Assembly (NCBI GenBank): GCA_973895155.1
Contig: OZ316893.1
Span: 17,178,670 to 17,242,669 of the forward strand
Direction of reading: 5' to 3'
From: Marsupella aquatica
Taxonomy: Eukaryota; Plantae; Marchantiophyta
Length of the DNA stretch: 64,000 bases
Shown: piece by piece, positions 14,627 to 55,398 of the stretch
How positions within the stretch are numbered: position 1 is the first letter of the stretch
Layout: each line of letters begins with the position of its first letter
Translations under genes and position numbers: made by a program
The notes under the pieces: model-generated
Told to the model about the DNA's origin: nothing
Seen by the model: only the letters and a program-made list of their open reading frames with translations
Databases searched by the model: none

Positions 14627-14719
14627 GTGAGTATACACCGTGTCTGTGATATTTCCTTCATGAAACTTGCATGTGTCCCTCCATGTACTTAGAATATGCA
14701 ATTGTATAAGCCTGTCTAG

Positions 14720-26223: not shown

Positions 26224-26227
26224 ACGG

Positions 26228-30675: not shown

Positions 30676-30849
30676 GTTGGCCAGGTTTGCAAGCTAGATT
30701 GTGGCTCTTTCTAGTAGGCAACACAATTGGGTTCTTTTCCCCCGAGACAGAGCCTTGGTGATAGGTGATGTGTTGGTGATTGTAAACTGTGGGGAGGATT
30801 TCAATTCAATTTGCGGTGAGCACATTAGGAAGGCTGAGACACTGATTGA

Positions 30850-33800
30850 TGGGCAGCAGGAGGAACATTTGAGTCAGAAAATGAGGATGACGGAGAGGAG
30901 GGAAGTGTCCAAGAAGAGAGCAAGAAGACTTTTCAGAATCGGGCGGGGTCAGAGAATGAGTCAGAGTCAACAAGTTTAGAAGGTGGAGTTGAACCAACCA
31001 ACGATGATGTTGAGAGTGGGGAAATTCAACTCCCCCCAGCAAAGCCTCCAATAGAGAAGCGATACGCAAAGACTTCAAAGGGAGTTTCGCCCAGGAAGGG
31101 GAAAGCTGGTGTCGTGTCAGAGTCATCCACACCCAGTGGGAAGAAAAAAGTAGTGGACAAAAAATCACCATCAGGGAAACTAGGCCGGAAGAAGGTTGAT
31201 TTTGACAAAACAAAAGAAGAAGCTAAACTACCTCGGAAGAGAGTGAAAGTCATTGATCAAGCAGATGAGCTGCCTGCGGCGAAAACAAGCCGCAAGAAGG
31301 TTCAACGGGAAGAACAAAAAGAAGACAAGAAACCATCTCGAAAGAGAGTTCTTGTTTCTGACCAGCGCGAAGTCGTGCCTCAAGTGAAAGGTGGAAAAAA
31401 CGTATCTCCGGTTGATAAACAAGAAGAGGCAACGTCTTCTCGAAAGAGAATTCAAGTTGTCGAGGAAGTGCAAGGAATCAAGGACAGAATACAAAAATCA
31501 AGCAAAGCAAGGAAAGTCGCTTCACCAGCAAAACCTGAGGAGGAGAAACCATCTCAAAAGTCTCGGGTTGGACAGAAATCTGCGTCGGTCAGGAAGAAAG
31601 TTGAAAAGGTCGAACCGGAGATCAGGACGCTGAAGCAAAAGGGAGTCGTAAAAGATCCTTCACCAAAGGGAAAGAAAAAAGCAAAACTTGATGTTGAATC
31701 AGTAGTTGTGGAATCAAGGGCAAAGCCTCCTAAGCGAAGGGGAACGACCACAGAGTCGGCTGAAATTGTTGTGAAAACTCCCATGGTTAGAGTTGTGGAG
31801 AAGAAGGCCCCAAATGTTGAGAAGAAGGTTGTCATCACCTCTCAAGCTGTCGTTCACAAGCCCAAGAAAGCAAAGAAAAATCAGGAAGCTGTGGATATTG
31901 ACGAGAACCCTAGTTCCGCGAAGCTAGTTGTTGACCGTGCTCGTCTGGAGACTGCAGAAAAAACATTGGAGTTGAATAAGTCTTGGTATTGTTTTGGGAT
32001 ATCCAAATTTTTTTCTGTCCCGATTGAAAACATCCATCCCCCTCCTGCAAAGATGAATGAGAGACTCCTCAATGAGGAGCATGTCAACCATCTTGCGCAA
32101 CTGATGATGACAAATGCAGGGCAAGAACCTTTACCTGCAGATTTGGTTCCTTACAAGATGATCGACGGAGTACCGAGTTTAATTGACCTTGCGGGAAAGG
32201 ATATTGACACCAAGAAGCTTGCGGAATTCAAGTTCTTTGCCATCAGTGGTCAACATTCCACAATGGCCGCCAAGAAAATTATCCGGAGTTCAAAGACCCA
32301 ACCATCTCTCATGCAAACAGCCAATTTGCTCAAATATCGTCAAGCGCAAATTCTCAAAGGGTCAACTCCGGTGAAAATTCTTGTGGAAATTTCACACGCG
32401 AACAACCTTCAGGCGGAGGCACATCGGTTTTCATCTCCATTTATTGACCAAGTGAAACATGCAAGAATGCAATACAATGATATGGGGCGACCAGCTCGTC
32501 CACTTCCATCGGGTCGGAAATCTCCAGAATTTCAGGTAGGTTCTCCATGAGAGTTGTGAACAAAATTCAGACACTTTGTCCTTCTCTCCTTTCTACGCGA
32601 GAGTCGTGTAGAGCCTTTCCAGTATTTTGGGATTCAAAACTTTGAGCAAGCTAACTTTGAGTTGTTTGGTCTTTCCTCTCAGGAGTATGAAACACTTGCG
32701 AAAGTTACGTTAAAGGTGAATAGCATTAGCGAGTACAATTGGATTTTTTTTGCTCCAGAGAAGCTCTACTCTTTATGGAGAGAGGTTTGCAATAATTGGC
32801 TCAAGGGTAATCTTTTGGATTCAACCGGACAAATGACTGGAAAATTGAAAGAAGCAAAACAGTTGACAGGGACAACATTCCGGGTTTTTGAGGGTGCCAT
32901 AGAATCCGACATCTTGGAAATCCTCCACAAAGTGAATTTTGGGGAGGCGCTTTTGATGAAAAAGAAACATGCTTTGACTGATCTTCCCGCCATGTCAGAA
33001 TTGGCAAGAAAAGAAAAGAAAACTGACAAACTTAAGGGGGCAATACTTCAATTTTATCGGGAGAAGTACGAAGGGGTTTTCTCGCAAGGATCAACTTGGG
33101 GTGATGTAGTTCAGCAATATAATTTCATTGATGAGGAATTGGATCGTTGTTGTGCAATGGTGGACACTGGATATTTCAAGAGCCTTGTGAAGGTGTCATT
33201 AAAAGCAGAGATGCCGGAGCCACTGAAAAATAGGTTGAGAAATATTCACCAAAAGAGGTTTGGCGGCTATCTCCATGCAAGAATGGATCCTTACCGAGTT
33301 TTCTATACTGGAAATCTGCTCGCGTCTGCTGATCCTCCTTTTGATTCGGCTAGCTGCAAGGAGTCAATATTGGCATCTCTAGCGATTGTTGATTTGACCC
33401 ATACTGGAAACCGGTTTGGACGCAGTCCAAAATCTTGAACTTCTTGAAGATCGTCGTGAATATCCCAATCTGGTAACAGTTGTTTTTTTGTTCGTCGTGG
33501 TATTATTCTTGCAAGAATAATTTAAGTTGTTTGAGATCTCCCAGAGAACTATAATGCGCACCTTGAATATGGTTCATTCATGAGGAGTTATTTGGTTAAT
33601 GCTCCTTCGCAACACATGAGAGGCAATGCGGACATGGTTCTTTTCCTTGGCGTCTCCCAAGATCAGGTTCCTGATTGGGAAAAGCATTTCAAGGATTTTA
33701 CCTGTCACTTTGTGTTGGAGGAGTCCGACCTCGAGGAGACAATCAAGCCAAGTCGAGAGGATTATTCCAATATTTCGAAGGAAGATATGCAGGAGAAAAA

Positions 33801-35523
33801 AAGGGACACATTGATCTCACGACTTGAAGGCCTTGTTCCTTTCAAATTGATGACTGGACGGTCATTCACATTGAATATTAAGCCCAGTCGCATCCTGCAG
33901 AGTTTTATTCATGCATTTTCTTCGAGGGAGGAAATTGTCCTGGATTTTTTCACAGGAGGGCAGGTATTGAAGAATGCATTGATGCTTGAGTGTGAGTGTT
34001 TTTCATTCTGCTCTGACCGTGAGGATGTCTCTGACCTCATGACTTATGCAAAGAATCTTAAATTGTTAGTTTTGGTTGCACAGTTTGCCAAATCATTGTG
34101 GAAACCTCCTGGCCTTGAAGGGAGTTCGACTCAGAACTCCAATGCTAGTGGAGCAAAAGAGGGCCAACATTATCAGATTGCCGGTATAGTTTTACATTAC
34201 GCCGGGGTGGAAGCGGAGCAAAAGTTTCTAAGTTCCATTGGGGAGATGAGAATTGGTCCATCAGTCGTTCCAATTGCAAGTTGCGAAGGATTTCCTCTTC
34301 TAATGGCTGAAGGAGGTTATGGTTTGGCAAATAATTCTGAAAACTTACAGGCAGGCACGGGGTTGATTGCGTTCAACAAAACTCTGGAAGATGTTGTGGA
34401 TGATGTCTCCCTATACACGTATCGTGTAGATCCTCAAAATTTGTTTGACCCTCCAGGGTTAGAGTGCAACAAAGGTGTTAAGCAATCTCTTCTGGTTGAT
34501 GCTTTAGTTCTTCGAAGTGGCCCAGTTTTTGATGATTGTGAGGCAAAAACTACACTCGAGGATGTCGAGAAGGGGGTGGTGGATTGTGGACCCTTAAAAG
34601 AGATTGTTGTGGAGGAGGTTGGGATTGTGGAAAAAGATCACACTCCGATTGAATTTCAATGCGATGACAATGTTGACTCTCGTAGCGCTGAAGTAACAGG
34701 ACAGAATGATAACTCATTTTCTCTCACATCGAATCTTCCTGAGGTGTCAGAGAGGCAAGTCGATTGTGCGGAGGCAACCAATGAGGCAGGTGCCAATTTC
34801 CTCTCTCTTGTCTCAAGTCATAAAGTTCTAAACATAAACAAATGTCCTCTCCCGTCTCCGGATCCAATGGATAACAAAACGAGGATTGAAAATTGCCTCA
34901 GTGATCTGTTGGATCAGGATGCGGTTCTAGTCAAGACTAATGGGTGCCTAGTAACTCGTGGACAAATGAGGTGCATGAGTCCTAGAAATTGGATAAGTTC
35001 CGATATTCTAAATGCCTACTTAAGTCTCATAGTGGAGAGGAATGAACATTTCGACAGGGAGCTTCTGAAGTGCCATGTGTTTGACACTTGGTTCTATACT
35101 ACACTGACGTCAAATGGCTACTCTTACCGATCTGTGGAGGCTTGGACTTCACGACTGAAATATTTCTTAATTGATTGTCATCAAATATTTGTCCCCATTC
35201 ACGAAGGTAGCGATCATTGGGCGTTAGTTGTGATTGACATGGAACACAAGTATTTAGAATATCTCGAATCTCTGCATAACAATAGGCCAGAGGTTCTTGA
35301 AAACTTAGCCAAATATGTCAAGGATGAAATTCAAAGCAAAAGTCACAAGCAAGTCTTAGCTACTCTATGGCCAAAACATAGTCCCAAGGACATCCCAAGA
35401 CAAACTTATTACTATAATTGTGGTGTGTTCGTTATGAAGTTTGCGAACTACCGTAGTTTGGACCTTCCTTTTGATTTCACAGGAGAGGACATAGATTTGG
35501 AGAGGAGAGAAATCATTTTTTAA
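30850..35523 (+). pseudogene. Multidomain gene: K/E-rich N-terminus - ParB/Srx-like domain - degenerate N6/N4 DNA MTase-like fold - Ulp1 (C48) SUMO protease
   Basis: VPIENIHPP..NERLLNEEHVNHL..FFAISGQHS (ParB-like). LAIVDLT..FSSREEIVLDFFTGG (MTase-like). WISSDILNAY..FDTWFY..IFVPIH..HWALVVID..RQTYYYNCGVFVMKF (Ulp1). Intron from ~32537; disruption near 33420-33580; 5' end lost. Confidence 0.75.
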
Positions 35524-35689
35524 GTCTATTCAGGAATAGATTAAGCTTTCCTCCGCAATACAGTGATTTCTGCATGAGACGCGTGTAGAGGGTGACAGAC
35601 GGGGTATTTGATTTCAAGGACTGACTTGACTTCAAATGGTCTTTGGTCAAGACTGTTCCAATGACTAACCATCCGGATTCGATATTTTT

Positions 35690-36866
35690 ATGTTTGTAGA
35701 GTTTGTTCCCAAACTCCACTCAGAGATCAAGCAAAAGCTCTTGATTTTTGACCTTAATAAAGTTTGTTTTGATTCCGTAAAGAGTAAAAGCTCCGGACCA
35801 TTTCGGAGGCTCACATCTGTGAGGGGCATTCACTGGGGAAGATGGGGCGGGATTTATGTATGTGGAGCGTCCAGGACTTCATAAATTTTTACAAGTGATT
35901 TTCAGGTATTACGATGTCGCGATTTGGACTTGCGCGGGAAGGCTGAGAACAAATGAAATGATGGATCTTGTTTTCAACGATGCTGAACGAAAGCAGTTCA
36001 AGTTTGTATTCACCCAAGAAGAAACATTTGACACTGGCTTTTTGAGGTCAGATATTACAGATGGGAAGACAAACATACTTCTTAAGGAAATCCAAACTAT
36101 TTGGGATCGTTTTGGCAATAGATATGGTCCGACAAATACTGTTCTCATCGATGACTCTCCTCTGAAGTGTTTCGCAAATCCAAATGTTAACACGTTATTT
36201 CCAGTTCCATTTGTTCACAACATGGGAGGCGACACTTTTCTAATGGAGATATTGCTTCCACTTCTTCAAAGAATGCACAATGCTTTTGATGTAAGACACT
36301 TTCTGAATGTTAACTACCCAAAATGGTCCACCTACAATAAGGGTGAAGCCCAAAGGAGGCATTGTGATATCTTTGCAGGACTCACTCAAGCCTGGGGGCA
36401 CCGCGTTGCTGGCATCGTCGATAATTTCACTGTCCTTGATCACACGGCAGACGAGATTTCCTGGGAAGTGAAGCATACCGTGCAAAGTTCGCCACCGGTG
36501 TAGGATATGAGTGACCGTGACATCAATTCAATTGCTAAAGGTCTACTTGGAGATGGTTATTCCGGCCCATATTTGCAAAATAAGCGGCAATTTGTTTGGG
36601 AAGTCCTAAAAACTAGGGACCTTACTTCTAAGTTTAAAAACTTGTATCCTAAAGACGCTTGCAACCGAGATAGAAAGTTTGATAAGTCAGGAAGTAGACT
36701 TACTTGCTCAAATATGTTTTGTAGCAACACACATTCAATGATCGTTATTAAAAATTTGGAGACTTGTAACATTGAGGGGAGGCCTATTACAAGTAAACAA
36801 TTGTTATGGACTTTTGTATGGTTCCCGTTAGTGGGTGACAATGAAAATGTGACATTACTCATGTGA
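35690..36866 (+). pseudogene. FCP1/SCP (NIF-family) HAD phosphatase-like gene
   Basis: KLLIFDLNK (motif I variant), ERPGLHKFL..YDVAIWTCA, LLKEI..IW, NTVLIDDSPLK..NP. Frameshift at ~35860 and stop at 36501. Confidence 0.85.
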
Positions 36867-37073
36867 CTATTCTCCACCAAATTCGTACGCCAAAAATGTA
36901 TTTTACATGGATTTGGAAATTTCAACTGGTGTTTAGGAAACTTGAAAGAGTGTTCTAGAAATTCCAGTTCCAAGTTTTGAAAACTTCATTTAAGTTTGTT
37001 GGATAATGTATTTATTTAATTTGGAAATTTTACCAAGCCACTTTGGAAAAAAGAATTTCCAGAATTAGTGAAA

Positions 37074-37538
37074 TCACTGATACATGCAATCGTCGTCCAA
37101 TCCAGCTTTGAACCTATCCTCATCCTGTCGAAACCCATCCTCTCGATCCAGAAAAAAATGAGGTCCGGGATAGCGACTCCGACTCTGGTCGTTCGGGATG
37201 TTCGAATCTGAAAAGCTCACACGTCCGGTGTCTGCTTGGATGTCTCTGAAAAAAGCTGTCCTTTCCACCCGATACACATTGGAAGGATCCGGGTCGTGAA
37301 TAGAGAACCTCTCTCGGAAAGGAAGTGGAGGCGAAGGATCACGTGACAGAAGGTGTCCAGTTCTGTGGCTAATACCCTCATCCGGGGCTAGCCACAACCT
37401 GTTCCTCTTGGTCGACGTCTCTGGGCACTGCGTAAAAGACAGAGTCAAATCTAAACCCAGATCTCTAATCAACCTCCAAACCATCGCCTTTGGCGGATTG
37501 CAGCTCTCCGATTTTGCTATTTGCTTCCCCTTATCCAT
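37074..37538 (-). CDS. Hypothetical 154-aa ORF (MDKGKQIA...)
   Basis: Open ATG-started frame within the cargo block; no recognisable domain. Confidence 0.35.
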   Translation of the reverse strand: MDKGKQIAKSESCNPPKAMVWRLIRDLGLDLTLSFTQCPETSTKRNRLWLAPDEGISHRTGHLLSRDPSPPLPFRERFSIHDPDPSNVYRVERTAFFRDIQADTGRVSFSDSNIPNDQSRSRYPGPHFFLDREDGFRQDEDRFKAGLDDDCMYQ

Positions 37539-37579
37539 TGAGTCAATGGAAACAACGAATGCAAAACTCAGGGAGAAGA

Positions 37580-37672
37580 GAAGAGGTGAGTCCGGGCAGA
37601 CCAGAAACGAAATGAAGGGAAGAGGTGAGTCTGGGCAGTGCACAAAAAAAATGAAGGGAAGAGGTGAGTCGG
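37580..37672. repeat. 39-bp-period repeat with core GAAGAGGTGAGTC, 3 copies
   Basis: Cores at ~37580, 37619 and 37658, just upstream of the 37538 ATG on the minus strand. Confidence 0.8.
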
Positions 37673-38372
37673 TGCCTCACAGAAACGAAAGGGAGAAATG
37701 CGTTTAGGGTTGAACAAACACGAAGTTGAACAAACCCAAAGTTGAACAAACACTACACTTTGAGAGAGTCCAAACAATCATATCAACCACAAACAAAAAT
37801 ACGTACAGATTGAAGGTATAATTATTCACCGTACAACTGTACGAGTACATGCATTTCTGATATCTGCACAAATATGCACTCAGGAAAGAGACTTATGGTG
37901 CGTCTATCTCCTTTAACGGCTCAGATCCGAACATCCAGTTTAATAGCGTCGGGCGCTAGTATAGGTTCCAAAGAAAACCTTAGAAATTCACACTCAACCT
38001 ACTCCAAGTCAGAAGACTCGGACTCGCTACTGCTAGACCTATCGGTAGACTTGGCTTCATCATCTATAAATTTGCTTCTAGGTCCATCGTTGAGTAAAGG
38101 CTGATGGATGAATTTCCTATCTGAACCTCTCCTTAACCTTAAGCCCTTACTCTCCCAAGTAAGTGTTCTCCTCTGTTCTTCTTTGCGTGCAGCATATTCT
38201 GCATACGAGGGCAACACGAAAGGCTTCTGAGGAGAAACGAGAACCTCCAAAGATTAAAACGTTCTTGAAGATTCCACTCCGATCTGGAAGAGGAACGGAA
38301 CCACATTAGAATTGAAAATGAAAATGGGACAGTTCCAGAATTGATAATGTAAAGTGAAGTAGCTTACGGGCA

Positions 38373-41230
38373 TTACTCAAAAGAATCCGAATCTTTTGTT
38401 TCTCCCGTCGTGTGCCTCTCCTTCTCTTTTCCTTCATTTTCCTCTCCTTGTCCTCCTGAAGCATCATCTCCAATAGCATCTCCCTCCTCTTCATCTTCAG
38501 AGTCAAAATTTAAGACAGAGCAAACTTTATCTTTTTGTTTTCTTCCCACATCTTTAGCGGGAGACGAGGAATTGACATCTTTTGGAATCAATAACTCCAT
38601 CCATGTCTTTTTCGCAATCTCAACAAACTCTTTTCGGTTTTCTATACCAAGAATAAAACGACCACAATAGTCACCAGCAACAAATGTACTTCCCGAACCC
38701 ACAGTCCAGTCCATGACAATGTCACCTGGCCGAGTGATTAACTCTAACACAGATTGCATGAACCCAACGAACAAGCGTCCATTGCTAGCAAACGCTACTG
38801 GAGGAGTTGGATCCTTCCTCACACTCGGGAGACCAATAAGGTTAGTGATAGAAGGATCTTCAGTTGCAGAGAGGGGTCAAAACTTGGGGTCCTTTGGAAC
38901 CTTAACCTTTGACGAAACACGACTGAACAGATCCAATCTCAATGTGAAAACCTGTGAAATCCCAACAACTTCCTTTGTTAAGATGCCGACGATCCAACCA
39001 GAAAATCATTACAATCATGGCATAACAATGAATTTTGGATAGCGCCAGGCGCTAACAAAGAATATCCCCTTAACCAAAGGGTATATGAAAACATTTTTAG
39101 CTAGCGCTCGGCGCTAACAAAGGACAGCACAAAGAGTGAGAGAATTTACCTTACAATCACTTCGGGCCATGTACATTGGAACTCCCATAACCACGTTCAC
39201 GGTTTTCACACATTGAAACTTTTGAGACTCCTGGCTCGCGGCGATGACCTGCGAGATCTGATCATACTCGCCGGTATGCAAAATGGCCAATATACCATCA
39301 TCTGCTAGAAAAGGGTCCATTGCGCGAAAGAATGAACCAACAATTCTGTGATCTGGGGAATTCCATTTTGGAGACTTATTCTCTAAAAGGGATGGGCGCA
39401 GTCCAGTTGGGAGGTAAATGAATCCAGCATCAACTCCAAATGATCTTATCTTTCCTCCTCTTATGACTCCTTTCTCCCTTAGACCAAGCAAGACTAGGTC
39501 TTTCACCCACTTCTCCACATTTGACACCCAAGCTGGTTTCTGCTCTTTTGTGAACACACTCTCAAAGAAGTCCATTACGCTGGACTCAACAAAAACATGC
39601 CTAGAAGTCTTAGACTTGAACTGTCCAACATCTCGTTGAACACCAGCAGAACTGGTCTCCATTGCCATGTACAAGCGATACAGATATCTCTTGGCTCGCG
39701 TCCGGTTGCGAATGGTATAGTCTTCCTTGTCTCCGTACTTGGACTGCCAAATTGTGCTAAAAAACTTTGCCTTCACTATTTCACCGTATGTCTTGAAATC
39801 ATTGGTGATGTTCAAGACCAAAGCTTCAACGTCTCCACTCCTCCTAGCGTCAGACGATCAGCAGGTAGGATCGACTGGACTTGCGAAAGAGATGTCTGTA
39901 AGATTGCAATTGCAATTCCTTCCACCAAACTCCACATGTGCCATGTATGACACCACTATTTAACAGGGTCATCATTCACACTCGGGGGATGGTAAAATTG
40001 TTTTCTGAGCTCGGGTGTACAGTGAGCGACAAGAAGAGTACAACGCAGTTGTGGATCCAAGTAGGAGACAACAGTGAACAGACGCGCGCGGTCCATTGTA
40101 CAAACTATAGAGTCCGGCTTCTTTTCGCGTTTGTTCCTCTCCGTAAGAATGTACATTTCTGCAGTCGCAATCACCAAACTTTGGGCTTATCAGGGGGTAA
40201 TCTTGGATGTCTTTATGCTCCACTCCTTCATTGCCTCCTTCATCATGGCAGCATACCGCTTACCAGTCTCTTCAGATGACCACGGGCGACCTTGACTTGT
40301 CGTAGCAGCCAAGTCAAGCTTAAATTGAAGTGAATACAACTTAATCTTGTTTTCACACAAGATGTAAACCAATGCTTCCAATGGCATCTGCTTGGTATAC
40401 CAAGACCCCTTTCTTGTCTTGGCACAAACAGTTTGAAATCGCTTGAAGCTGCCGGGGTCGATGATCGGCTTGTAGGCCTCCAAGTCATGAGTTAAAATCC
40501 AATTGATTCTATTGGCATCGAGAATCCACGATGGTTCCACCACAGCTTGCCCTAACCTGTAAGATATAATGGCAAATATTAGCGCCTGGCGCTAACTAAC
40601 CTTGCAAAAATCAAGCGCAATCGACCAAATTCAATAGCATTTATGCAACTTGAGGAATACTTACTGGTTCACCGTGTGCATAGCCGCTTCAAACTCAACT
40701 AGAGAACCTTGATCTCCCTTAAAAACAGTGCATTGAACACGCGGATGGTACTTGATATTGTCTGGATTCTCATTTGTTACTTGGGTCCACGAGTAGAGTC
40801 GATGATTCCCGTCAAAAACACAGAACATCTTATCCTTCAAAATGTGGAAATCTGGATCAGTAGCGCATTCTGCTTCAAACAAGTCGTTCTGGGCAACCCA
40901 AACAGCATCCCAGGTCTCCCAAATTTTAGGCGTGCAGAATTGAATGACTCCTTCTGAATCCGTGGGCTGGACGTAAAACCACATCCCAATTGAAGAGTTG
41001 TACCCAGAGCTCCGAAATGAATCCTTGAGCTTATCGATAGATGCACTATTTTTCTGTAAAGTCCGAACGATTTCCATGTGAACAAGCCGACAAAGAGGGA
41101 TACACGGCGGCTCTTTCTTCTCCCCCCTGAAATTGACTCCAAATAACATTGCGTATTTCTCGATCACAGCATCCATGGACAGAACTCCCTCGCCCCCGTC
41201 CTCCATCGAAAAATCTATGTAAGACTCCAT
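38373..41230 (-). pseudogene. ParB/Srx-like + beta-class N4/N6 DNA methyltransferase-fold gene (exons 41230-40665, 40556-39150, 38951-38373)
   Basis: IPLCRL..IVRTL..SFRSSGY..FCVFDGNHRL (ParB). VDAGFIYLPTG..FFRAMDPFLADDGILAI (motif IV-VI region). ITRPGDIVMDWTVGSGSTFVAGDYCGRFILGIE (motifs X-I-II). Both GT-AG introns preserve the frame. Several premature stops and one frameshift. Confidence 0.85.
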
Positions 41231-44200
41231 GATGCCTCATTTTGGCTTTGGAATCGCTTGACTAATGTTTCGCAAAGAGTTCGACGCAAACGAACGAGTG
41301 ACTCTCCGAGTATAAACTGATCCGGAGAATGAGGACTCGGATGTTTCAGAATGGCCAGGAGAATGATTCTCCATGTTTGTTTAAGATGCACACACATGCG
41401 GAACCCCACCGCAACGTGCTTCTCGCGTGATGCAATGTTTCTTGTGGTGCTGTACCGATATGGACGAATGATTGACAATGACCCTAAACGTGCATAGAGG
41501 TCGTTCTAACGATCAAGGAAGACACTATCGCAAAAAGATCTTATCTGATATACCCTGTGGCAGACCGACATGTATGACAAGTACACATAAAAAAGCACGA
41601 GCATCCAAAAGCAGACCTACTAAAGGTTGACACTTGTCACATTTTAACTCATTTATAGGTACTCGTGAATATATTTATCCAGGAATTTGTTATAAATTGT
41701 AACGATAAACGGTCAAAGTTACTGTTTAAAAAGACCATTTATGTCAATATTCTACTTTGATCTAATATTAGCGCCTGGCGCTATTATTATGCTAGACTAA
41801 AATATATCTTGAAATAAAGGATTTTAATAATAGCGCCTGGTGCTAGTAACATTGTACTAAAAAATCATGCGAATGATTGGACTGAAGCGAGAAAGTTTTT
41901 GTAATAAACGGCTTCTATTTCTATCAATTTTATGAAAGTGCCAGGCACTATTTTTCTTTTAGTCTCAAATAGGGCTTAAATGTGTAGATTTCAATAATAG
42001 CGTCCGGCGCTAGTAACGAGACACTTCAAAATGGCTTAGATGTTTGGACCCAAAATATGCGAGTTTCTATAAATAATGACCGTTACATCTTGACATTTTT
42101 ATCAATTTTATGATAGCGCCTAGCGCTATTATTATGATAACTTCTACTCCAGCTCAAATGGATCGATTTTAATATTAGAAGAGGGTAATATTGTCGTCTG
42201 CCATAAATAAGATGCTATTTCCAAGGAAACCCGATACATTTCAGCTTAAATGTTGGCATAATGAGTAGCTGTTGTAAGATGTTAACCTGTGTCAGTAACC
42301 AAAATGGCCGTTGATCTTTGCTTTTGTTGTTCATTTTTGGGCTCTTTCAGATGTGGAAAACGCTAGCGCCTGGCACTACTATATTACCCCGTCGGTTACA
42401 ACGTCAAAACAATTAATTCAACAGTAACTATCCACCGAATTGATGGTTTTGTCGTTTCTTGAACGGTAAGAAAATCCGTACCCAACGGATCCTATAACCG
42501 CTCGACGGCTCTTTCCATTTGAGACTTGGATTAAGAAGAAACCCTCAACCATACAATCTAGCTTCATTTTACCATGTATCATTATTTTATATAGTTGGTT
42601 ATCTTTGGGGAGTTAGAATGTCTCGCATTATTCGAATAACGTGTCCGAATACAGGTGACGTTGTGACGATCCCTGTGTCGATTTCCAAAACCACAAAACA
42701 TGTTAGTGATAATTACCTGTGTGGAAGATTTGGGGTGACGGGAAAACATATTTTGAGTGTCAGAACTTTGAACGATGGGCCCGCTCATTTTGATATTGAA
42801 GCGGAGGACGTTGTTTGGAATCTCGAATATGGCGTGGAGTACTTGATTTTCATTCAACTAAGGGACATCGTTCAGGTCAAGGTGGAGAGGCCTCAGGTGG
42901 CTCACGATGTGATTGACCTTACGTCCGACGCTGAATGCTCTAAGGGTTCTCCACCAATCTCAAAGGGCGGTGAGGTCAAGAAGGAGGGCGGCAGTACCAG
43001 TTTGTTGATGCTCCAGGTACCCCCCATATTGATTGCGTCGGAGGGGTGTGATGATGGAGACACTCTAACTCGTCCTGTTCTGGTTGTGTACAGAAGAAGC
43101 GCACTTGATGCCTTGTTGAAGTCAACTGGACAAAGTGAGTTATCGCGCTTTGTTAGGTCTGAGGCATTCATTCACAAACAAGTTGAATGCTTACTTGTAG
43201 AGTACAATGGGAATACCATATTTGAGCTTCCACCTGTTCAAGGTGTTGGCTCGAAACAGGGATCGTCTGCAAAACATGGATCGATCCAAGGATTGCTACC
43301 TCTGGACTAGAATCTTTCCTACTTTTGCTAATGTCGTTCCGAAGAAGATGTGGGAGTTTGGGAAAGTAAGTTGTAGTGGTTCTCTCGAATGCTGAAATAG
43401 AGCATGTGAGTTTTACACCAGGACTCAAGTCTGAAACTGTAATGGATGGGATGGGACCCCCAAGCTCTCTGGTCAGCATTGTCCTGGGAGGTTGATCGAT
43501 GTTGGAGGAATTGTTTGTCGCTATTGCCTTCAAGTTCCATTTTGTGTTGAGTCTTGTCCAGCAAAAATGTTTTATATGTACCCGCAAGTTTTGATCGAAA
43601 ATGACACTGCAAAACACATGTCACGACTTGCAATCCATATGGGGGTGCACAACCATCCATGTTGGAAGGTCTGGTCTAGAAGTGCTGAGAAAATAGCAAT
43701 AGAAGAGATACGGAGACAGCATGAGAAGTCTCCTTCTTCTACACCGTGCATTTTGAAAAATGAGATCACTGGATCTTTAATGGATGCCGTAAGTGAGTCT
43801 GTGGATGACATTTCAAAGCTAGAAGAATCAGAAATCTGGAAATCACTTATGCTCGTTTCAACACCTCAGAAGTTTTCTGCGTTATGTAAGAGCGTTCGTA
43901 AAGATCAGGTTGGTCAAGGTGATTTGGAATATCTGGTTTGCATGCAGAAGAATGTTACGTTTCCTTTTCTCCAAAGATATCTTCTTCCTGGGCAGGGCTG
44001 TAAAGGTGATAGAGCACATATTTTCAAAATGACTATATCAAAGGTCATGGATCGGGAGTAGATTTACTACGTCAGATGAAGAAAGGGGGGCCTCTAGAAG
44101 GAGCATGGGTGAGCTTTGATGTGATGAAAAGGATGTCCAAAGAATGGAGTACTTTTAGTGCACATGTGTATGACCATAACTATCGAGCTTTGTGCACAAT

Positions 44201-46636
44201 ATTTACTTGTGAACTCAAAGTAGAGGACACTGCATCGCTTGAGAAAGCTTGGAGGTTGATGATCGAAGTCGCTTTGGAGAACGGTTTAAAGGGCGTGGAA
44301 ATCCATGGTTTCATGGCAGATAACGCTCAAGCAGGATGGATAGCGGTTAGGAATGTCTTCTTTGATGGCCATCCAAACCCGGAGAGAGCGATCGGATGCA
44401 TTCCACTTTTATCAGTCTTTGCATCGGCACTCTATCAAAGGAGTACTTGAAGAAAAACGTGCTGAACATCGAATCCTTTGGGACAAGTTGCGCAATGCTG
44501 CTTCATTTGTGGAAGCCTACAGGGTTTCACGAGAGATTGATTCATGGTGGAGATCTGGAAATTGTATTCCTGGGAAACTTAGAATGTTGCAAGGATGGAT
44601 TGCTTGGTGGGTTGTGAAGTGGCGTCAGTGGGGAAACTTCATACGTTTGGTGAGTCAATGTATACTAGCGCCTGGCGCTAGTATTAATCTCCCTTTTCTA
44701 ATTGTGATCTTTACTCATGTTTTTTGCCAGCGCCGGGCGCTAACGTACAAATAGCTTGATAGCGTCTTCAATCTTCACAATCATCATGAAAAACATTCAT
44801 ACCTTTCGTCCGCCCATTTTGAAGTTCCACTTTATTTTTTATTTGATATATTGTACTGAATTTGACAAAACTCTTTTTCAGAGCAAAAGTGCACTTGAAG
44901 GGGGGATGATTCCCAATTGCACTGGTTCTGAAGCTGTTCACGGAATCATGAAAGCATGGTAGGGAAAGAAAACAGTTGGTTTGTTCGAAGGATGTAAGAC
45001 CGATCACAACAGAGCAATCTCACAAATAGCAGCCTATACAGCATATCGTGAAAGGCTCCATCGGGGTACCGGTCCAACAGTGTTTGAATTGGCTTTTCGT
45101 TCGGCTGACCAGGCAGGGTCCCCAAAACTCTTCGAAGAAGCCTCTAATATGTTACTCGCAAATGCAGCTGAATTTAATTTGGAGAGGGATTCTCCGTTGA
45201 ATGGGGATTTTGTGACAAAGTCTATGAAAAGAAAAGGTCCAGCGACCGGGAATGTCTCTCCACAAGACTCCCATCGACATGACACGGTTCTCATAACTAC
45301 ACCAAATACCCGAGGTTGCAAGAGGAGAAATTTGAACTCATCCGAGTTTGAGCACATTCCGATACTTAGAACTCCTCCTTCGAATCCAGTTATCGATTTG
45401 TCTGAAAGTGGCTCTCCAGTTTCCCATCATGTCACTCAATCTTTCAAAGTTCCAGAAAGTGCTCTGAACACCACTCCATTCATTCTTGTAGACACTTTGC
45501 TTTTTGAAGTGGACATTGTACCTGGGTCTTGGCATCTGCGGAGAGTTTCCAGACACGGTGCTGGACCACAGTGTAATGGGACGTTGTCTGGAAGTTGTGA
45601 TAGAGATGAGTGTCGTAATCAAATTAAGAAGGTCGGATATCCTTCAAATGCAGGGGTTTTCGGAATAGTCGTCAAAGGTTACCGCTTATTCAGAGGTGAA
45701 CACCATCCAGAGCTTGTCTGGTTCTGCCCCACTCGTGATTGGTGGAAGAGCCGCCCTCGTCGAGGTATTGTGAACCTCCCTACTTTCCCAGACTTTTTGC
45801 CAGTACAGAAAGGCACTCATCTTTCAAGTCTGGAGTTGAATTTCCTTCAAGAGCAGGGCATTGAAGTCTTGAGAGGAGGTGCTATTTCACGTTGTCCTTC
45901 TCCATTTGAACTGAGAATCAACATTGACGTTTTTCCTGAAAAGATCGATCTTGCACAAGTTAACATCCGTTTTTGAACGAGAAACGGGCGTGCGATGAGC
46001 TCCAGATCAAATCTCACTTAGGAATATCGTAAAAGGATTGAATCAACAACGAAAGAAACAATGACTTTGATCAAAACTATGGAAGTTTCATCTGGAAATT
46101 CATACGGGAAACGATTCCAGATACGCACACATGCACATTTACGAACTGCAAATACTTACTGGGTGCAGATTTGCATTTTCCCTTGTTGCTCTTGTGAAGA
46201 TTTCTTTCATCGACATTCTTGAGGGAAACCTTTCATGCCATGTAAACACTTGTACTGGGTTTACAAAGTTATCTGCAAGCTTGATCCTGTGGACAATATC
46301 CTCGCAAGCCAACCGATTCTTACCATTGCGGAACTGCGTTATATTCTAGGGAGGCAGAATGCTGATGGTTTATAGGAAGGTTTAGTATTCTAGTTTACGT
46401 TCAACGGGTATGTAGGACTTGTTGTTTCGTAACGGTAACTTTGTTTTGGTTAGCGCCCGACGCTAGTAAACAACATTTGGTTTCTTTTCAACACGGCTCA
46501 ATCTTTTGTGGGTTTCACAAAAAACTTAATTTGTTTTTACAATTTTACGGATGTGTAAATTTCATTGTACGGGTAACGGAGATTTGTTTGTATTCAATCG
46601 TCACTTGGCCTTCAGTTTTGTTAGCGCCCGACGCTA
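39040..46636. repeat. Dispersed 15-bp palindrome TAGCGCCWGGCGCTA (at least 11 good copies)
   Basis: Starts at 39040, 39102, 40580, 41769, 41831, 41936, 41998, 42114, 42364, 44666, 44728, 46451 and 46622 (0-2 mismatches each). All lie in introns or intergenic DNA. Confidence 0.92.
42618..46375 (+). pseudogene. Mutator-like transposase: GCM-like Zn domain - DDE - SWIM
   Basis: VSCSGSLEC.N..C, CRYC..C..CPAK..IHMGVHNHP (GCM/WRKY-like). WVSFDVMK, FMADNAQA, SDAFHF, TGSEAVH (D, D, C/DxxH, E). CSCEDF..PCKHLYWV (SWIM, ~46184-46260). Intron 44650-44881; several stops and frameshifts. Confidence 0.8.
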
Positions 46637-47734
46637 GACTCCATTTCCTTACTTGGTTGCAGTTTGTAGTTTCCAGGTCTGAACGTGTGGATTTCTTTTG
46701 CATGCATTCTCGAGGATGACCTTTTCTTGCCTTATAAACCATTATCCTCTGATCATTCCGGTAGATGGTGAGAGGGTATTTTGTTAATGATATTTTGTAA
46801 CGGTATCAAATGCTTGGTTAGGACTAAGCGCTAGTAAAGGCATCTTCCGATAATTGTCGTTTTCCCCATTGTTTTGAGTTTATGTTGAATTTGACATCTT
46901 TGGTTTGGTCCAAAATTAAGCCTTTTTTGTGAATGATAGTACCAAGTCTCTTGTTTTGTTCCACTATTTTTCCTGTTATGATCATCACTGTTTCCTGTTT
47001 CCTGTAACGGAGGTCGGGCCCGAATTTTCGAATGTTTTTTTTATTGGTGTTGCTCACAACAGTACGGATGATGACAATTCCTTGAATGTTTTTCCTGATG
47101 TGAGTAAAAACATTGCTGATAACAGTAAAACTTTCCTGATATGAGGAAAGTGTTTGCTCGTATCAGTAAAAAAATCTCTTGTTTCCTGGCACGGTGTAAA
47201 GCCTCGGATAGTATAGGAAAATTATAAATGCCTGTAGTATAACAAATCTATGAAATGAATGCATGACCATGCACATAGGAAACATATTATTAGACAAAAT
47301 AAAACTAGGATATCCAAAACGGAACCATTGGATCCCAATATGTAATGATGGTAGTACTCTTTCCTTGAGAAGAAAGCGGCAAGGTTTTAATGAGGCTACA
47401 TCAATGGGAATACCAATTAGATAATCTAGGGTTAAAACTGTGGTTACTTTACACACCCATAAACTAACCAAGGGGGAGTGTTGTAAACCATAGTTTACAC
47501 TTAACCCTAGAATAAGGTTACCTTTAACCTTATATGATGTAACCCAATGGCTACATAATGCCATACCTTAATGGAGAGAATGATCTTTTATCATGACAGA
47601 AAACCTTCTCTCACAACAATATATGATGAAGTTCTTTATTGAACGCGAATAAAGTTGGCATGAGTATGGTATCAATGTCTTCATATAATTTGTATTTAAG
47701 CATGTATTTCATTTTCATCATGCTTCCCATATCC

Positions 47735-47937
47735 CATGACATATATTATGACCTTGACATTTGTGCCTCGCTTAAACATTTTTTCTCTCATGGACATGTT
47801 TTGCTCATCTCAATATCTTTTATCACCTCGACATATTTATATCACTTGACATCCTTTTATCACCTTGACATATTTATATCACTCGGCATCTTTTTATCAC
47901 TCGACATCTTTCGTGCAACACACGAGCATGGGGCTAG
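47735..47937 (+). mobile_element. Helitron 3' end
   Basis: CGTGCAACACACGAGCATGGGGCTAG|T preceded by degenerate CACCTTGACATC repeats; paralog of 48590-49084. Confidence 0.7.
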
Positions 47938-49084
47938 TACTACTATAATACCCTATCCGGCCAAAAGTGGATGTAGTTGGTTTACAAAATCACTTTTGGA
48001 GGGAAGATTCAATGACCCTTGTATTTATAAGCTGTTTTATCCTAGCCTTTCATTTGTCAAAAACATTATCTCTAACCCAAGCAAGACAAAGTATTTTGGT
48101 ATGCACAAAGATTCTCTAAGAAGGGGGCATGATGGCATACACTTTATGTGAATGCCATGTGTTGCCATTGGAATGGGGCACTTGGAACACCATTATGAGG
48201 GGATAATTAGGGACTAGGAGACAAAGGTCAAAGTAGGGAGGGGAATTAATGATACACCCATGGGTGAAGGGATGAATAGTATCATACCCTCCCATAGTCC
48301 CATGAGTACAAGATAAGGGATGAGACAAAGTGGAGCAAAGGAAGGTGAAAATACAGATAATAATAATAAGGCAATACGAGGAAAAAAGGAGGAGAAAAGG
48401 GACATCATTGCCTTTCATTGGGTTTTTTTTTCAGGGGAGGGGGGGGGGAGAAGGGAGAGGCAGCCCAAGAGAAAGGGGGAGAGGGAGGCAATGAGGAGTA
48501 CGGGGGTTGTCACCCTCCACCTAGGGTTGTGTAAATATGCATGTTTATGTTGTCCTCACCTATCTCCCTGATCACTTTTGCAACAATCTCTCTTTGACAT
48601 CTTTCTCTTCTATGGACATCTTTTCCCAACCTCAGCATAGTTTTCTTGCCTTGACATCTTTTAATCACCTCACATCATTTCTCCCCTCCATATCTTTTCT
48701 CCTCTCGACTTCTTTTGCACTCCTTGACATCATTTTGTCTCCTTGACATTTTTTCTCAACTTAACATTTTATCTTTTTCTCATCTCGTCATCTTTTTCTC
48801 ACCTTGACATCTTTTCTCACCTTGCCATCTTTTATCTCATCTTGCCATCTTTTTCTCTCCTTGAAATCTTTTCTCACCTTGAATTCTTTATCTCATCTCT
48901 CCATCTTTTTTCTCACCTTGACATCTTTATCTCATCATGAAATCTTTTTCTCTTCTCAAAATATTTTTCTTGCCTTAACATCTTTATTCACCTTGACTTC
49001 TTTTCCTCACCTCAACATCTTTTTTCAGTTCAAGATCTTTCTTCACCTTGACATCTTTTGTGCAACGCACGGGCATGGGGCTAG
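47938..49084 (+). mobile_element. Non-autonomous Helitron
   Basis: 3' hairpin GTGCAACGCAC..GGGCAT followed by CTAG|T (49081-49085). The 5' region TACTACTATAATA resembles plant Helitron starts. Degenerate ~17-bp repeat array at 48590-49060. Confidence 0.65.
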
Positions 49085-49849
49085 TATTCACATATTTTGC
49101 ATTGATAAATATGCCCTGGTTTAGTAGATGCATCACAAGTTCACCAAAGTAACCAAGAGAATTATATACAAAAACCGTGACATATTTATGGACCCCCATT
49201 AGGGGTCTCTTGCAAATTCTCTGGCACGGGAGCGCGCCCTGTCAGCACAGATGTAGACAAACAAGGCAAGACCATTTTGAAATGAAAATTACTACCCACG
49301 TCATGTTTGTGGCCATTTTTGTGTAACTTTTGGGTCGCCATGTTGTAAATTCTAAGTGTAAATATAAATACATACAATATTTTTTGGTATTTTTTAATGC
49401 TAACTGTTATATTTACTTTTAGGTTTTTTATAAATTCAATAAATGTGTGAAATGTTGTGGACTCATATAATTTTTTAATGTTATAACCATATAAGTAGAT
49501 GTTTAGAAGCAATTATGGTAACTACCCATATAACTGATTAAAAATAGTTAGACAATTTACTCATCTCAAACAACAGTAGTGCGTACAAGGGGGAGAACAT
49601 CACCATAGCATTGTTCTCTATCTCTTCTTCCAGTCGAGCACATTGGGATTTTTTGCCCAGAAGCAAGTTTACAGTTTTCCAAAATAAGCGCTGCCTAGCT
49701 AATACTACTTTGTGTTCAATCCACATTGGAATCCACATATGAAAGTTGTACAATCAAGGGACATGTTGGGCTCTTACATCGCACATTGCGCTTAAGTGAA
49801 AATAGATGATTCACGAGGTCCTCGGGGGCCTCACTCTAAAAAAGTCTCA

Positions 49850-50159
49850 CCCTGGGGAATCACTTGTTGGATTATTAGAACGAGGTGCAAAAAAATGAAG
49901 GTTATTTTTTAATAATATTGGGGTAATGATTACAATTAAAAACTTATACTAAAGGCATTTAAAAATCCAATTTTGGTAAAACTTTTAGTTTTTATATTCA
50001 GCAAGGTATTTAAGAATTTTTCAAAGTCGTATAATAAAGGACCATACAAGGTATTTTTAATTTAATTTATTTTTAAATTTATTTTTAAATTTATTTTTTA
50101 AATTTATTTAGTTTATTCTCACGTGTTTTAGGGGTTTTACTCTAAGTGATTCCCCAGGG
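49850..50159. repeat. 16-bp perfect inverted repeat around an AT-rich core (MITE-like)
   Basis: CCCTGGGGAATCACTT (49850-49865) and AAGTGATTCCCCAGGG (50144-50159). Confidence 0.6.
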
Positions 50160-53100
50160 GGGGTCTCATAGGATGCTTGACATTTTTAGCTATTAAACAC
50201 CCTAAAAAATAAGAAGAGGAGTTTTTTGAACTATTTTTCTACCCCAATATTTTTGGAATATTCTAAAAATATTGACAAAGCCAAGCTAAAGCTCCTCTCC
50301 ATATTGGTGCATGAACAGCATGGTGCATGAACGGCATGGAGCAATCATCCCACTCTTTAAGGTTACGCATCACATATTCGGGCTTCTTATTAGCAGGCTT
50401 TCCATTGACAAAGTTGGCAATGACATCAACCGATGATAGAACACAAGCAAAACCTTTCATTTCCCCTTTAATTTGAGAGGTTCACCTTGGCTCCAGTGGG
50501 TGTGAAGCCATGTAAAGAATTGCCTGCCTCCCTAACTCAGTTGAGACTTTCAATTGGATTCGATAGATAGATACTTCAAAAGCTTGGTTGATATTAGAAA
50601 TCCAGAAAATGTTGGTAAGAATAAACAAGGGGGTCCACCAATTAATTATAAATACAATAAAAGAGGTTGCACTACTGTAAATTTAAACATCTTTAGTGAC
50701 TAGGTGCTTAAAAGCTGGTTTAACCAAACCTGTTGCTGATCCTATATGAAATGGAGTGGGGCCCAAGTTTTGCTAATGTGGAGCACATTTTTGTCTCAAA
50801 TTTTAGACCTTCTGGTCCCGTAGTACATTCCTCTTTTGAGGCAATCGCATTTAAAGTGTACCCATAAGTCCTTCATAAGATCTACTCTTGTCAGAGCTAG
50901 AAAGACTGCAGCGGTTCCCTAGCTTGTCTTTTAACAAATTATTCTAGCTCTCCTAGCTCCACTTAGCTTAACAAGACCTTGGAGGCCATAAAAAAAACAC
51001 TTTTGGCCCCGGTACACAATATTATATTTAGTGTGTGAAATTGCCTTCCAATTTGCTTGGTGAAAAAAAGCTCACAAGTGCCCCAACTTCCTGTAAAGCC
51101 ACCTAAGAGGAGGGGATTTCAGCACGAGTTAAAGGTGATCATGAAGTAAAGATCTTATCATATCCTTGGATTGCACTGAGTGACAGAAAAAAGCGCAAAT
51201 AACCGAGTACTCTTTTTCCGGGTACGGAAAGGTCTTTTTATAACCAATCAGAGCTGAGGTCAAAGAGGGAGGTCCACAGAGGGACCCACCCAGTAGAGTG
51301 GGAGATTGTGATCGCAAAAAGTTGTGGGGTCCGGGACTATGCAAGTTGCTCTGGAGCAAGCATGACTGTCCAGCGCAATGAGAGATTCTGGAGGTAAAGA
51401 TATATTTTATTCAATCATTAGAAGGGAAGATTGAGATGTTCATTATTCCCTGAGGTACATTTTCATACAACTCAGTAGTACTACCGCAAATAGCATTTGT
51501 TCTACTCTACAAGTGAGCTCCAGTCGGGCTTCACTTTTGTTTGTAGAACAATCATCTACCCAGGCCTCTACCCTTTTGAATAGAGGTATAGGGCAAGAGT
51601 AAAAGCCCACGGTTTCTGCCGTGAGAAACAAGCGCATGTGGCACATTATATACTGAACCCACTCAAGACTATTTGGAATTGCATAATTAGAGTTATACGT
51701 AAATGTACAGGATGAAACTCAGAAAAGTGAGTTGAATCAAGCTCAAAAAAGCATAACACAATTCTCCCCTTAAAGCCCCCCTTAAAGCTCTTAACCCACT
51801 AACACTCAGGTTGGGTTTACTAAGTACTCCAGTGAGGCACTCTACAGACTGCTGAACATGGAGGAAACATCAATGATGAAACAAAATGAAACTTCCTGAG
51901 CCGAAACAAAATTGCAAACACAATTAACATAGAGCTGAAATTTTGAACTTTCAACCTAAGCAACAATTGAAATGGGTCATTTGAAATGAGAATCAAAATC
52001 CCAAGCTGGGAGTTTGAGCTGTCAACCAGAATACACATCAATTCATCAGTCCTGTCCTGAAATTAAACTTGAATGAATTGAAAGGATCTCCTAGCCTGAC
52101 TCTGAAATAATCCATGGCAACTCGCAAAGTCTGTGGCAGCACACAAAGTTGAACACAAAGTGTATGGGAGCTCTTGAAGTAGAACAAGAGAGCTCTGGGT
52201 GACAGGGTAATGTTACTTTTAGAGGCATTAGTGCAATTTCACCCCTTATTTGAACATGCAGCAGTTTAATTTTGGGTTTAATGGAACCTTAAATCACCCT
52301 GAACCCGAGTCAAAATGATGTATTACTCACCCACCTTCTAGCACTTTATGGGATACTCTGTTGTATAGTTGGGGATTGGACCTGAGATCTGCAGGTCACC
52401 CTAAACTTATTCCCAATCTCCCAGGACAAAAATCAGTTGGAAGCCAATAAAAGAACCCAGGGGCCATAGGGAATGACCAGCAATCACCTGGGTACCGCCA
52501 GCTGACCTAGAGAGGAGACCCCAGGTCACCATGAGACCTGACTATTAATGGGTCAGGCAGCACCGTGGTGCATGCTGATGATACCCCCTGGCTCCCAGGT
52601 CACTAAGAGAATGAATCATCGTAAGACACCTGGGAATGTTTGGATCACGAATGCAAAGACAATATCTAAAACAGCATCTCATGGATGACCCTAGTGACGT
52701 GATCAAACTATTCTGTCTAAAGTTATAGTCGCTACATTTCTCCCAGCACCCCTATAGTCGTCGTAGACATCTGGCAATGTGCTCAATACTATGGGTATCC
52801 TTCGTGACTTTCATTGGGGATCCTCCGTATTTGTCCTCTTCGTTTAGATATTGAAGATTTATTTTTGGATTGATTGAACAGAAATGAAATCATGGCATGA
52901 GAAAAAATATTGTATCAATACCCGTATGCATGCGTATTTGAAGACAAGTAATATATTTAATTATTGATGTTAGTTCAGGCAATGTCTAGTGAGAGTGAAG
53001 GTCTGGATGGACCGAAGTGTTTGTTTTGCCCATCCCCATGGACTGTGACACATGTATCACTTTACCCCAAAGTTCACAGTGACTGGTTGCTTTTGCAAGG

Positions 53101-54774: not shown

Positions 54775-54977
54775 GCTGGTTTGGCACGTCCTTGCGATAG
54801 TGTGTATCCTGACTGCTTGTCTGACAATCTACAGTAGGGAGGAGAACTAGTTTAAGTACCGTTAAAATAGATCGGGCTGGTTGGGCACGTCCTTGAGATA
54901 TTGTGTATCCTGACTGCTTGCCTGACAATCTACAGTAGGGAGGAGAACTAATTTAAGTACCGTTAAAATAGATCGGG
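54775..54977. repeat. Two-copy 101-bp tandem duplication upstream of the transporter gene
   Basis: GCTGGTT.GGCACGTCCTTG...TAAAATAGATCGG repeats at 54775 and 54876. Confidence 0.9.
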
Positions 54978-55398
54978 CGTGCGCGCTCTGTGAACATTTG
55001 AAAATATGTTACAGAAAACTTCAACTTGAGGTCGAATTTGATTAGACAATGTCGTCGTTTCCATGCGTCCAATTATGAAATCTAGTAATGGGTGCTTGAC
55101 TGAACTGAATTGGGTTGATTTCGTAGGATTATTATCGCAGTGGCTTTCGTCCAATTAGGAACCGAGTCTTGGGTGCAGAGGTGCTTGACTAAATTGAGTT
55201 GGGTTGATTTCGTAGGGTTATCGCAGTGAGATGCGAAGAAGGGTGTGAGTCTGCAGAAGATGGGATGAGCTTTTAGTAAATCAAATTTCTCGCTCAACTA
55301 GCGACAAATCTGCACTGAACCGAACAACTTTCAGGAAAGACAAAGGTCTCATCAATTAGCACATTTCATCACTTGAACGCAGATACTGGTACCCAGCC

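Follow-up and report, generated by a model that had tools for sequence, protein, structure and literature searches.

Regularly spaced palindromes in the non-coding DNA of a MULE-like transposon of the liverwort Marsupella aquatica: candidate docking sites for an element-encoded protein

A 64-kb stretch of contig OZ316893.1 of the liverwort Marsupella aquatica (below, the window, in which all positions are counted from the first nucleotide) contains a transposon copy with two divergent genes, a MULE/SWIM-like transposase gene on the plus strand and an accessory gene with ParB/Srx-like and N6/N4-methylase-like domains on the minus strand, and multiple copies of a 15-base palindrome, TAGCGCC-N-GGCGCTA. 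The locus raises the question of what these palindromes serve and, should they be protein-binding sites, which protein recognizes them. The initial annotation of this DNA regarded them as parS-like loading sites for a protein encoded by the element. Our analysis shows that the palindromes are confined to non-coding parts of the element and that their pairing at 62 bp is kept in a relative whose DNA cannot otherwise be aligned; tentatively, we read them as candidate cis sites at which a dimeric protein of the element, most probably the accessory one, would dock.

All copies of the palindrome are located between positions 37944 and 46833, and none was found elsewhere in the window. The exact sequence TAGCGCCWGGCGCTA is present four times (at 39040, 40580, 41769 and 44666), and no match was produced by any of 100 shuffles. 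When up to two mismatches to this sequence were allowed, 13 matches were retrieved, all of them within 37944-46636, with a shuffle mean of 0. A search with the centre base left free and at most one mismatch also returned 13 sites (37944, 39040, 39102, 40580, 41769, 41831, 41998, 42114, 42364, 44666, 44728, 46451 and 46622); with degenerate copies at 41936 (three mismatches) and 46819 (four mismatches), the total of scored sites is 15. Ten other matches are obtained in the window at a threshold of four mismatches, each with exactly four. The half-sites follow the same distribution: all nine occurrences of TAGCGCC and all eight of GGCGCTA in the window fall inside 37900-46900. Every one of the 15 scored sites lies in non-coding DNA, i.e., in introns, in the divergent intergenic gap or in the 3′ flanks, non-coding DNA making up 28% of the block. 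The claim that the motif is restricted to non-coding parts of the block thus holds, no copy with two or fewer mismatches being found outside, and within the 64-kb window the motif is specific for the element. The initial annotation had, in addition, listed all copies as instances of one sequence, which has to be corrected, since only four are exact and the one at 41936 is degenerate. The extension of one site to a 23-bp palindrome at 44662-44684 was reproduced at 22 of the 23 positions, with the centre as the sole failure.

C>T and G>A changes are eroding the palindromes of this transposon copy; of 16 departures from the consensus, 12 of which are in the window and 4 in L001 (a distant relative described below), 13 are of this type, an excess that would fit deamination of methylated cytosines. 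A second word, GTAACGG, is also enriched, being present five times in the non-coding DNA of the block (at 46429, 46573, 46797 and 47004 on the plus strand and at 42080 on the minus strand) and once elsewhere in the window. The palindromes at 46451 and 46819 each have it 22 bp upstream.

The distances between the sites are not arbitrary. Four pairs (39040/39102, 41769/41831, 41936/41998 and 44666/44728) have a start-to-start spacing of exactly 62 bp, as had been noted at the outset; since 41769/41831 and 41936/41998 are paralogous tandem units, the number of independent pairs is three rather than four. When sites were placed randomly in the non-coding parts in 20000 trials, at least three equal spacings were obtained in 0.76% of trials (P 0.0076) and at least four in none. 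Sites in the divergent intergenic gap form an array with spacings of 62, 105, 62 and 116 bp, which corresponds to three tandem units of ca. 167-178 bp, and the 47-nt spacers of these units are 62-64% identical. The spacers of the two intronic pairs, earlier described as unrelated, are not clearly so: their global alignment yields a weak similarity (z 3.9), with all other cross-comparisons giving z below 1.5. Expressed in helical turns, the spacings are near-integral (5.9 for 62 bp, 10.0 for 105 bp and 15.9 for 167 bp). The GC content of the spacers is 17-34%, so that the palindromes are GC-rich islands in AT-rich DNA. On the plus strand, the centre base is W (A or T) in the first site and S (G or C) in the second in four of the five dyads, irrespective of the direction of the host gene.

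Metagenome contigs of the Joint Genome Institute (JGI) were scanned with a pattern in which an exact site had to be followed, at a start-to-start distance of 47-77 bp, by a second site that was allowed to contain transitions. The scan retrieved a single locus, L001, of 1310 bp, with sites at positions 932, 1037, 1099 and 1195 (spacings 105, 62 and 96 bp); its rhythm of 62 + 105 = 167 bp matches that of the window between 41769 and 41936. Nothing except a 21-nt motif aligned between L001 and the window in a blastn comparison. By tblastx, L001 contains the tails of both genes, with identities of 38% over 47 amino acids for the transposase-like gene and 52% over 23 amino acids for the accessory gene; they are joined head to head in L001, which looks like an internal-deletion derivative. 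Individual site variants are also common to both loci: TAGCGCTCGGCGCTA is found at 39102 in the window and at 932 and 1099 in L001, and CAGCGCCGGGC(G/A)CTA is found at 44728 and 1195, respectively. The search pattern did not dictate the exact 62-bp and 105-bp distances, the gene homology or the site variants. The retention of the 62-bp pairing in otherwise unalignable DNA points to a constrained cis element, in line with the initial annotation, to which the spacing had appeared constrained. Between the stop codon and the palindrome array, L001 carries CCGTT/AACGG words. No locus with the pair pattern was found in viral contigs. Two loci (L002 and L003), both from one Pyrinomonadaceae metagenome-assembled genome, were retrieved from 596 Gb of prokaryote genomes and rejected as chance matches, as they belong to an unrelated 52/53-bp tandem repeat with the consensus TAGCATCCGGCGCTA. 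The arrays of this repeat, with the TAGCATCCGGCGCTA core, lie on two contigs in opposite orientations.

The block itself belongs to a high-copy family, as contigs of two organisms cover it at very high summed depth, with more than 2000 contigs per run. At three of the five array mismatches checked (41947, 42003 and 42122), the majority letter of the family restores the palindrome; the other two, at 41841 and 42374, are not among the positions listed as differing in the family. A GAC variant at 42007 is carried by about half of the depth, and the same variant is present at 46451 and 46622. As regards selection, variation within the family was uninformative: among the 29 variable places listed, 5 lie in columns of the motif, approximately the expected share. 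The depth also did not reveal the ends of the element, being high across the whole 36500-48500 stretch. One contig (X1) joins position 39060 to 46443 with 22 foreign letters in between, which constitutes a deletion-derivative junction; it lies directly beside the palindromes at 39040 and 46451 and, like L001, keeps the accessory-gene side together with the 3′ array. In 4, 11 and 5 contigs of three runs, unrelated sequence ending in poly-A directly precedes position 40659, at the border of exon 1 and intron 1 of the accessory gene.

The accessory gene, which is divergent from the plus-strand transposase-like gene, combines a ParB-like and a methylase-like domain in a single gene. Proteins of the liverwort Riccia sorocarpa aligned by tblastn span 41203-39896 and leave a gap of 36 codons exactly over 40557-40664, which confirms intron 1; in-frame stops in the same alignment identify the copy as a pseudogene. 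Contig joints (38939/39142) are found at intron 2. A phmmer search with exon 1 returned 210 relatives, in which the PLCR and D-G-N-H-R motifs are conserved, and the GxxR position (G143-N-H-R146) hardly varies among 40 sequences. Where a look-up of relatives of the ParB-like exon gave names (7 of the 10 clusters queried), these were hypothetical proteins of R. sorocarpa with ca. 25-43% identity. The exon was modelled by AlphaFold2 with a pLDDT of 90.9, and structure comparison of the N-domain gave Z 8.2 with Noc and Z 8.1 with ParB over 98 residues at a root-mean-square deviation (rmsd) of 2.7-2.8 Å; all 30 structural matches listed for this domain belong to the ParB/Srx superfamily. With middling confidence, the model therefore suggests that the N-domain of the accessory protein has a ParB/Srx-like fold with a GxxR motif. 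The model of P0028, a relative, is helical over residues 333-555. The last exon (38373-38876) is matched by Pfam N6_N4_Mtase with an E-value of 1.8e-08. A profile search of PDB sequences produced only adenylate kinase (E 0.32), a search for longer homologues of the 247-amino-acid exon produced nothing, and none of 29 pattern matches was confirmed when the ParB-exon alignment was compared with viral contigs. No ParA/CbiA-type Pfam match was present among the 13 + 51 open reading frames (ORFs) scanned across the window.

The transposase-like gene has intact relatives, P0157 (66% identity) and P0158 (49%). The nearest named Atlas clusters of P0158 carry MULE and SWIM with scores of 0.85-0.94, which we take as a lead only, and a CxC...CxH pattern can be read by eye in the protein. 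Pfam searches with every piece of the transposase gave no match even at E-values up to 10. MULE elements are characterized by terminal inverted repeats (TIRs) with a target-site duplication (TSD) of 9-11 bp. Nothing convincing of either kind was found by blastn with a word size of 7 or when 26000-37960 was compared with 46640-56000 for TIR + TSD combinations, and the transposon copy may be truncated or decayed. Both element genes are pseudogenes, and the palindrome system is dead in this copy.

Which protein, then, would dock at the palindromes? As stated above, our tentative answer is the accessory protein, and it is more probably the binder than the transposase for four reasons. First, a 7-N-7 palindrome suits a dimer. 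Second, the spread of the sites resembles that of the targets of VANC21, whereas AtMu1 transposase peaks at terminal repeats. Third, the ParB-domain genes of red-algal Plavaka elements, which belong to another transposase superfamily, also adjoin inverted-repeat arrays. Fourth, the spacings correspond to near-integral helical turns. On this basis, dimers of the accessory protein would occupy the 7-bp half-sites; sites separated by near-integral turns would be presented on one face of the DNA and could support cooperative assembly across the introns, the promoter region and the 3′ flanks, and the bound protein might mark or shield the whole element, much as ParB is loaded at parS and VANC on VANDAL21 arrays. 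A stronger version, in which a eukaryotic transposon possesses a genuine ParB/parS-type system, i.e., a clamp that would load at phased 7-N-7 palindromes, spread along the DNA, carry a methylase-derived domain, mark the element as self and escape or redirect silencing, we consider unlikely.

Several observations weigh against the accessory protein as the binder. The top Foldseek matches all belong to the ParB/Srx superfamily, but their E-values are only 0.08-0.6, and superposition of full-length ParB/Noc chains on the P0028 model, which did not bring out a sequence-reading helix-turn-helix, reaches only 5.6-6.5 Å rmsd (Z 8.8, in the middling range). Pfam finds nothing for the ParB-like exon or the middle exons, even at E-values up to 10; there was likewise nothing in 19 long relatives, and three further proteins gave ankyrin or spurious matches only. 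Motif IV of the methylase-like domain is YLPTG in the window copy as well as in the relative P0159 (68% identity); the Riccia paralogs have D[LM]P[TS]G. The canonical amino-methylase motif IV (D/N/S)PP(Y/F/W), of the DPPY type, was encountered neither in the accessory gene nor in the relatives compared; a motif that is conserved and yet departs from DPPY makes catalysis doubtful. L001 is a single relative and was retrieved with a pattern that required a pair of sites; moreover, its array adjoins the transposase tail, the accessory gene being truncated there. Finally, WRKY/GCM-like Cys-His motifs can be seen by eye in the transposase-like protein, which could itself be the binder. Specificity within the window, confinement to non-coding DNA, the pairing in L001 and a middling ParB-like fold speak for the initial proposal of cis loading sites for an element protein, which is partly supported.

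The finger-like motifs of the transposase, together with the non-canonical motif IV, make binding by the transposase the main rival. The palindromes would then be bound by MULE/SWIM-like transposase fingers, either for transposition or for transcriptional self-activation, as with MURA, TnpA and AtMu1 transposase. Motifs resembling WRKY/GCM1 fingers (GVHNHP and GEHHPE) can be read from the translation, and deletion derivatives keep the motif-bearing ends (the 3′ array of L001 and the 39060/46443 contig). However, fingers of the WRKY/GCM type generally recognize short asymmetric sequences as monomers, whereas the motif here is a 7-N-7 palindrome, and Pfam finds no DNA-binding domain. In addition, the palindromes are distributed over non-coding DNA in the interior of the element, and our scans found no TIR. 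AtMu1 transposase itself points both ways: in the portion of the study covered here, it binds and activates its own family, yet its peaks are at TIRs and not at introns (10.64898/2026.08.24.746577). We regard transposase binding as somewhat unlikely.

A host factor or DNA structure could also account for the sites, if they were a promoter/enhancer module or phased nucleosomes at 167 bp and had been accumulated for expression of the element. Six sites are located in the divergent promoter gap, 167 bp is a short nucleosome repeat length, and the palindromes are GC-rich against spacers of low GC content. A site of this sort would be expected outside the element too, yet there are none in the other 55 kb of the window, which contains other transposons and gene fragments; copies in introns and 3′ flanks are also ill-suited to promoter modules. 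The motif string had no published occurrence in the literature searched, the supplements of the Bostrychia preprint, which possibly describe its repeats, being outside the scope of that search. Taken together, we find this explanation quite improbable.

Marginally less probable still is that the dyads act as hairpins, whether at the RNA level (in a small-RNA precursor or as a structure within introns) or as a cruciform or recombination site when the DNA is single-stranded. Fold z-scores are -5.1 to -6.7 for four of the five window dyads and the L001 dyad, but such values are expected by construction, because two copies of any palindrome must pair. Weak Rfam matches to microRNA precursors at 39038-39116 (E 0.14 and 0.44) reach 26 and 22 bits, compared with gathering scores of 81 and 64, and Rfam matches as a whole were limited to sub-threshold microRNA and CRISPR-repeat ones. 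In favour of hairpins, a deletion joint lies beside two sites; on the other hand, the W-then-S order of the centre bases, independent of gene direction, speaks against a function in the sense of the transcript, and neither single sites nor the 105-bp spacing suit a hairpin unit. That the dyads are functionless relics of a tiny independent miniature inverted-repeat transposable element (MITE) or selfish mini-repeat in non-coding DNA is the least credible of the explanations: the weak residual similarity of the intron spacers (z 3.9) and the inverted-repeat ends, the latter given by construction, would agree with it, but three observations disagree. No TSD is visible next to the intron dyads; pairs that proved to be ends of such an element with TSDs would have led the initial annotation to give up its proposal. 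In the intergenic gap and in L001, the sites are arrayed with alternating distances of 62 and 105 bp and are not discrete insertions. The motif, its spacing and its variants also persist between families that cannot otherwise be aligned, unlike a neutral relic.

The coordinates of the genes, introns and palindromic sites are collected in Table 1.

Table 1. Features of the palindrome-bearing element in the 64-kb window.
Feature	Position	Strand	Remarks
Accessory gene (ParB/Srx-like + N6/N4-methylase-like), pseudogene	37996..41230	-	ATG 41230-41228, stop 37998-37996
Intron 1 of accessory gene	40557..40664	-	108 nt, GT-AG, in frame; 36-codon gap relative to P0015, P0025 and P0028
Intron 2 of accessory gene	38952..39149	-	Donor firm (39149, GT), acceptor approximate; P0159 ends at the same exon border
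MULE/SWIM-like transposase gene, pseudogene (frameshifts, in-frame stops)	42618..46375	+	From ORF map
Intron of transposase-like gene, GTGAGT...CAG	44650..44881	+	P0158 ORF runs into the same donor; contig joint 44633/44966
Palindrome TAGCGTCGGGCGCTA, one mismatch	37944..37958	.	38 nt beyond the stop codon of the accessory gene
62-bp dyad, TAGCGCCAGGCGCTA then TAGCGCTCGGCGCTA	39040..39116	.	In intron 2 of accessory gene
Single exact palindrome	40580..40594	.	In intron 1 of accessory gene
Tandem array	41769..42190	.	Divergent intergenic gap; sites 41769, 41831, 41936, 41998, 42114 and a decayed partner near 42176
Palindrome TAGCGCCTGGCACTA	42364..42378	.	240 nt upstream of the ATG of the plus-strand gene
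62-bp dyad, exact site (extends to 23-bp palindrome 44662-44684) then CAGCGCCGGGCGCTA	44666..44742	.	In intron of transposase-like gene
3′ flank sites 46451 and 46622 (both TAGCGCCCGACGCTA) and decayed copy 46819	46451..46833	.	Spacings 171 and 197

To the left of the leftmost palindrome, there is a 39-bp tandem repeat in 2.5 copies (37575-37670), followed by a 16-bp repeat (GTTGAACAAAC...) in 2.8 copies (37709-37753); both could be subterminal repeats of the element. Long open frames on the plus strand (30850-36866) adjoin the left side of the block and contain a Ulp1 protease domain (33535-35520) and a NIF/CTD-phosphatase domain (35823-36503). Elsewhere in the window, a Gypsy-type retroelement is interrupted by a complete-looking CACTA element (9619-22049), which has 31-bp TIRs (CACTAGTAGAAATACC...) and a target duplication of 3 bp (TCG). 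The ORFs of the CACTA element match Transposase_21, DUF4218, DUF4216, Transpos_assoc, PHD and BRCT; the Transposase_21/DUF4216/DUF4218 set is typical of land plants.

Among known systems, bacterial ParB-parS offers one comparison. There, a clamp is loaded at a 16-bp palindrome in a CTP-dependent manner. The accessory protein shares with ParB a ParB/Srx-like N-domain with GxxR, and in both cases the palindromes are clustered near the gene. The differences are the lack of a ParA match among the ORFs scanned in the window, the 7-N-7 architecture in place of the 16-bp parS, the eukaryotic host and the intronic location of sites. An accessory class combining ParB with an N4/N6 methyltransferase was reportedly noted already by Iyer, Abhiman and Aravind in 2011. 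A literature search that combined ParB, methyltransferase and bryophytes returned nothing relevant.

Parallels also come from algal transposons. In Ectocarpus, Sola1-1_Ec32 carries a ParB-like + N4/N6 DNA methyltransferase gene opposite the transposase (PMC12477816). The two-domain architecture, the location on the strand opposite to the transposase and the idea of self-binding or self-modification are common to that element and ours, whereas the transposon superfamily is different, no cis motif is reported in the part of that article considered here, and motif IV is non-canonical in the liverwort copy. In the red alga Bostrychia moritziana, the accessory gene PAG3 of Plavaka encodes a ParB domain and stands beside tandem inverted-repeat arrays, and the authors of that study proposed binding and modification of the element by the protein it encodes (10.1101/2025.02.11.637652). 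A transposon-borne ParB-like N-domain and adjacent inverted-repeat arrays are thus found in both cases. In PAG3, the partner domain is a 2-oxoglutarate (2OG) oxygenase and the transposase is of the EnSpm/Plavaka type, as opposed to the N6/N4-methylase-like partner and MULE/SWIM-like transposase described here, and the part of the preprint covered gives no motif sequence, spacing or intron placement (10.1101/2025.02.11.637652). Arabidopsis VANDAL21 is similar in the layout of its sites: VANC21 binds motif arrays in introns, intergenic DNA and terminal non-coding DNA (PMC5735166). In both elements, VANDAL21 being a Mutator-type and ours a MULE-like one, a family-specific short motif is concentrated in non-coding DNA, in the case of VANC21 often in tandem repeats that change between relatives. 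VANC is, however, unrelated to ParB, and its 9-mer YAGTATTAY is arrayed in one orientation, in contrast to a 15-bp palindrome with 62-bp dyads. As far as the sections consulted go, both binding and hypomethylation have been demonstrated for VANC21 (PMC5735166), while the sites presented here are candidates known from their sequence.

As can be seen, binding of a transposon by its own ParB-type accessory protein has already been put forward in print for algae, according to the portions of both reports considered (10.1101/2025.02.11.637652; PMC12477816). Three points appear to be new: the palindrome is defined and keeps fixed dyad and array distances in families that cannot be aligned; it lies inside introns of both element genes; and it goes with a MULE-like element whose relatives, where named, come from a liverwort. 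The 2025 self-binding proposal defines no binding sequence in the part covered, and the Marsupella locus provides a candidate, i.e., a 15-bp palindrome with a 62-bp dyad and a 167-bp rhythm, with which the self-recognition idea becomes directly addressable by binding and methylome experiments. If our reading is true, self-recognition of the VANC style would be extended to a ParB module of prokaryotic derivation.

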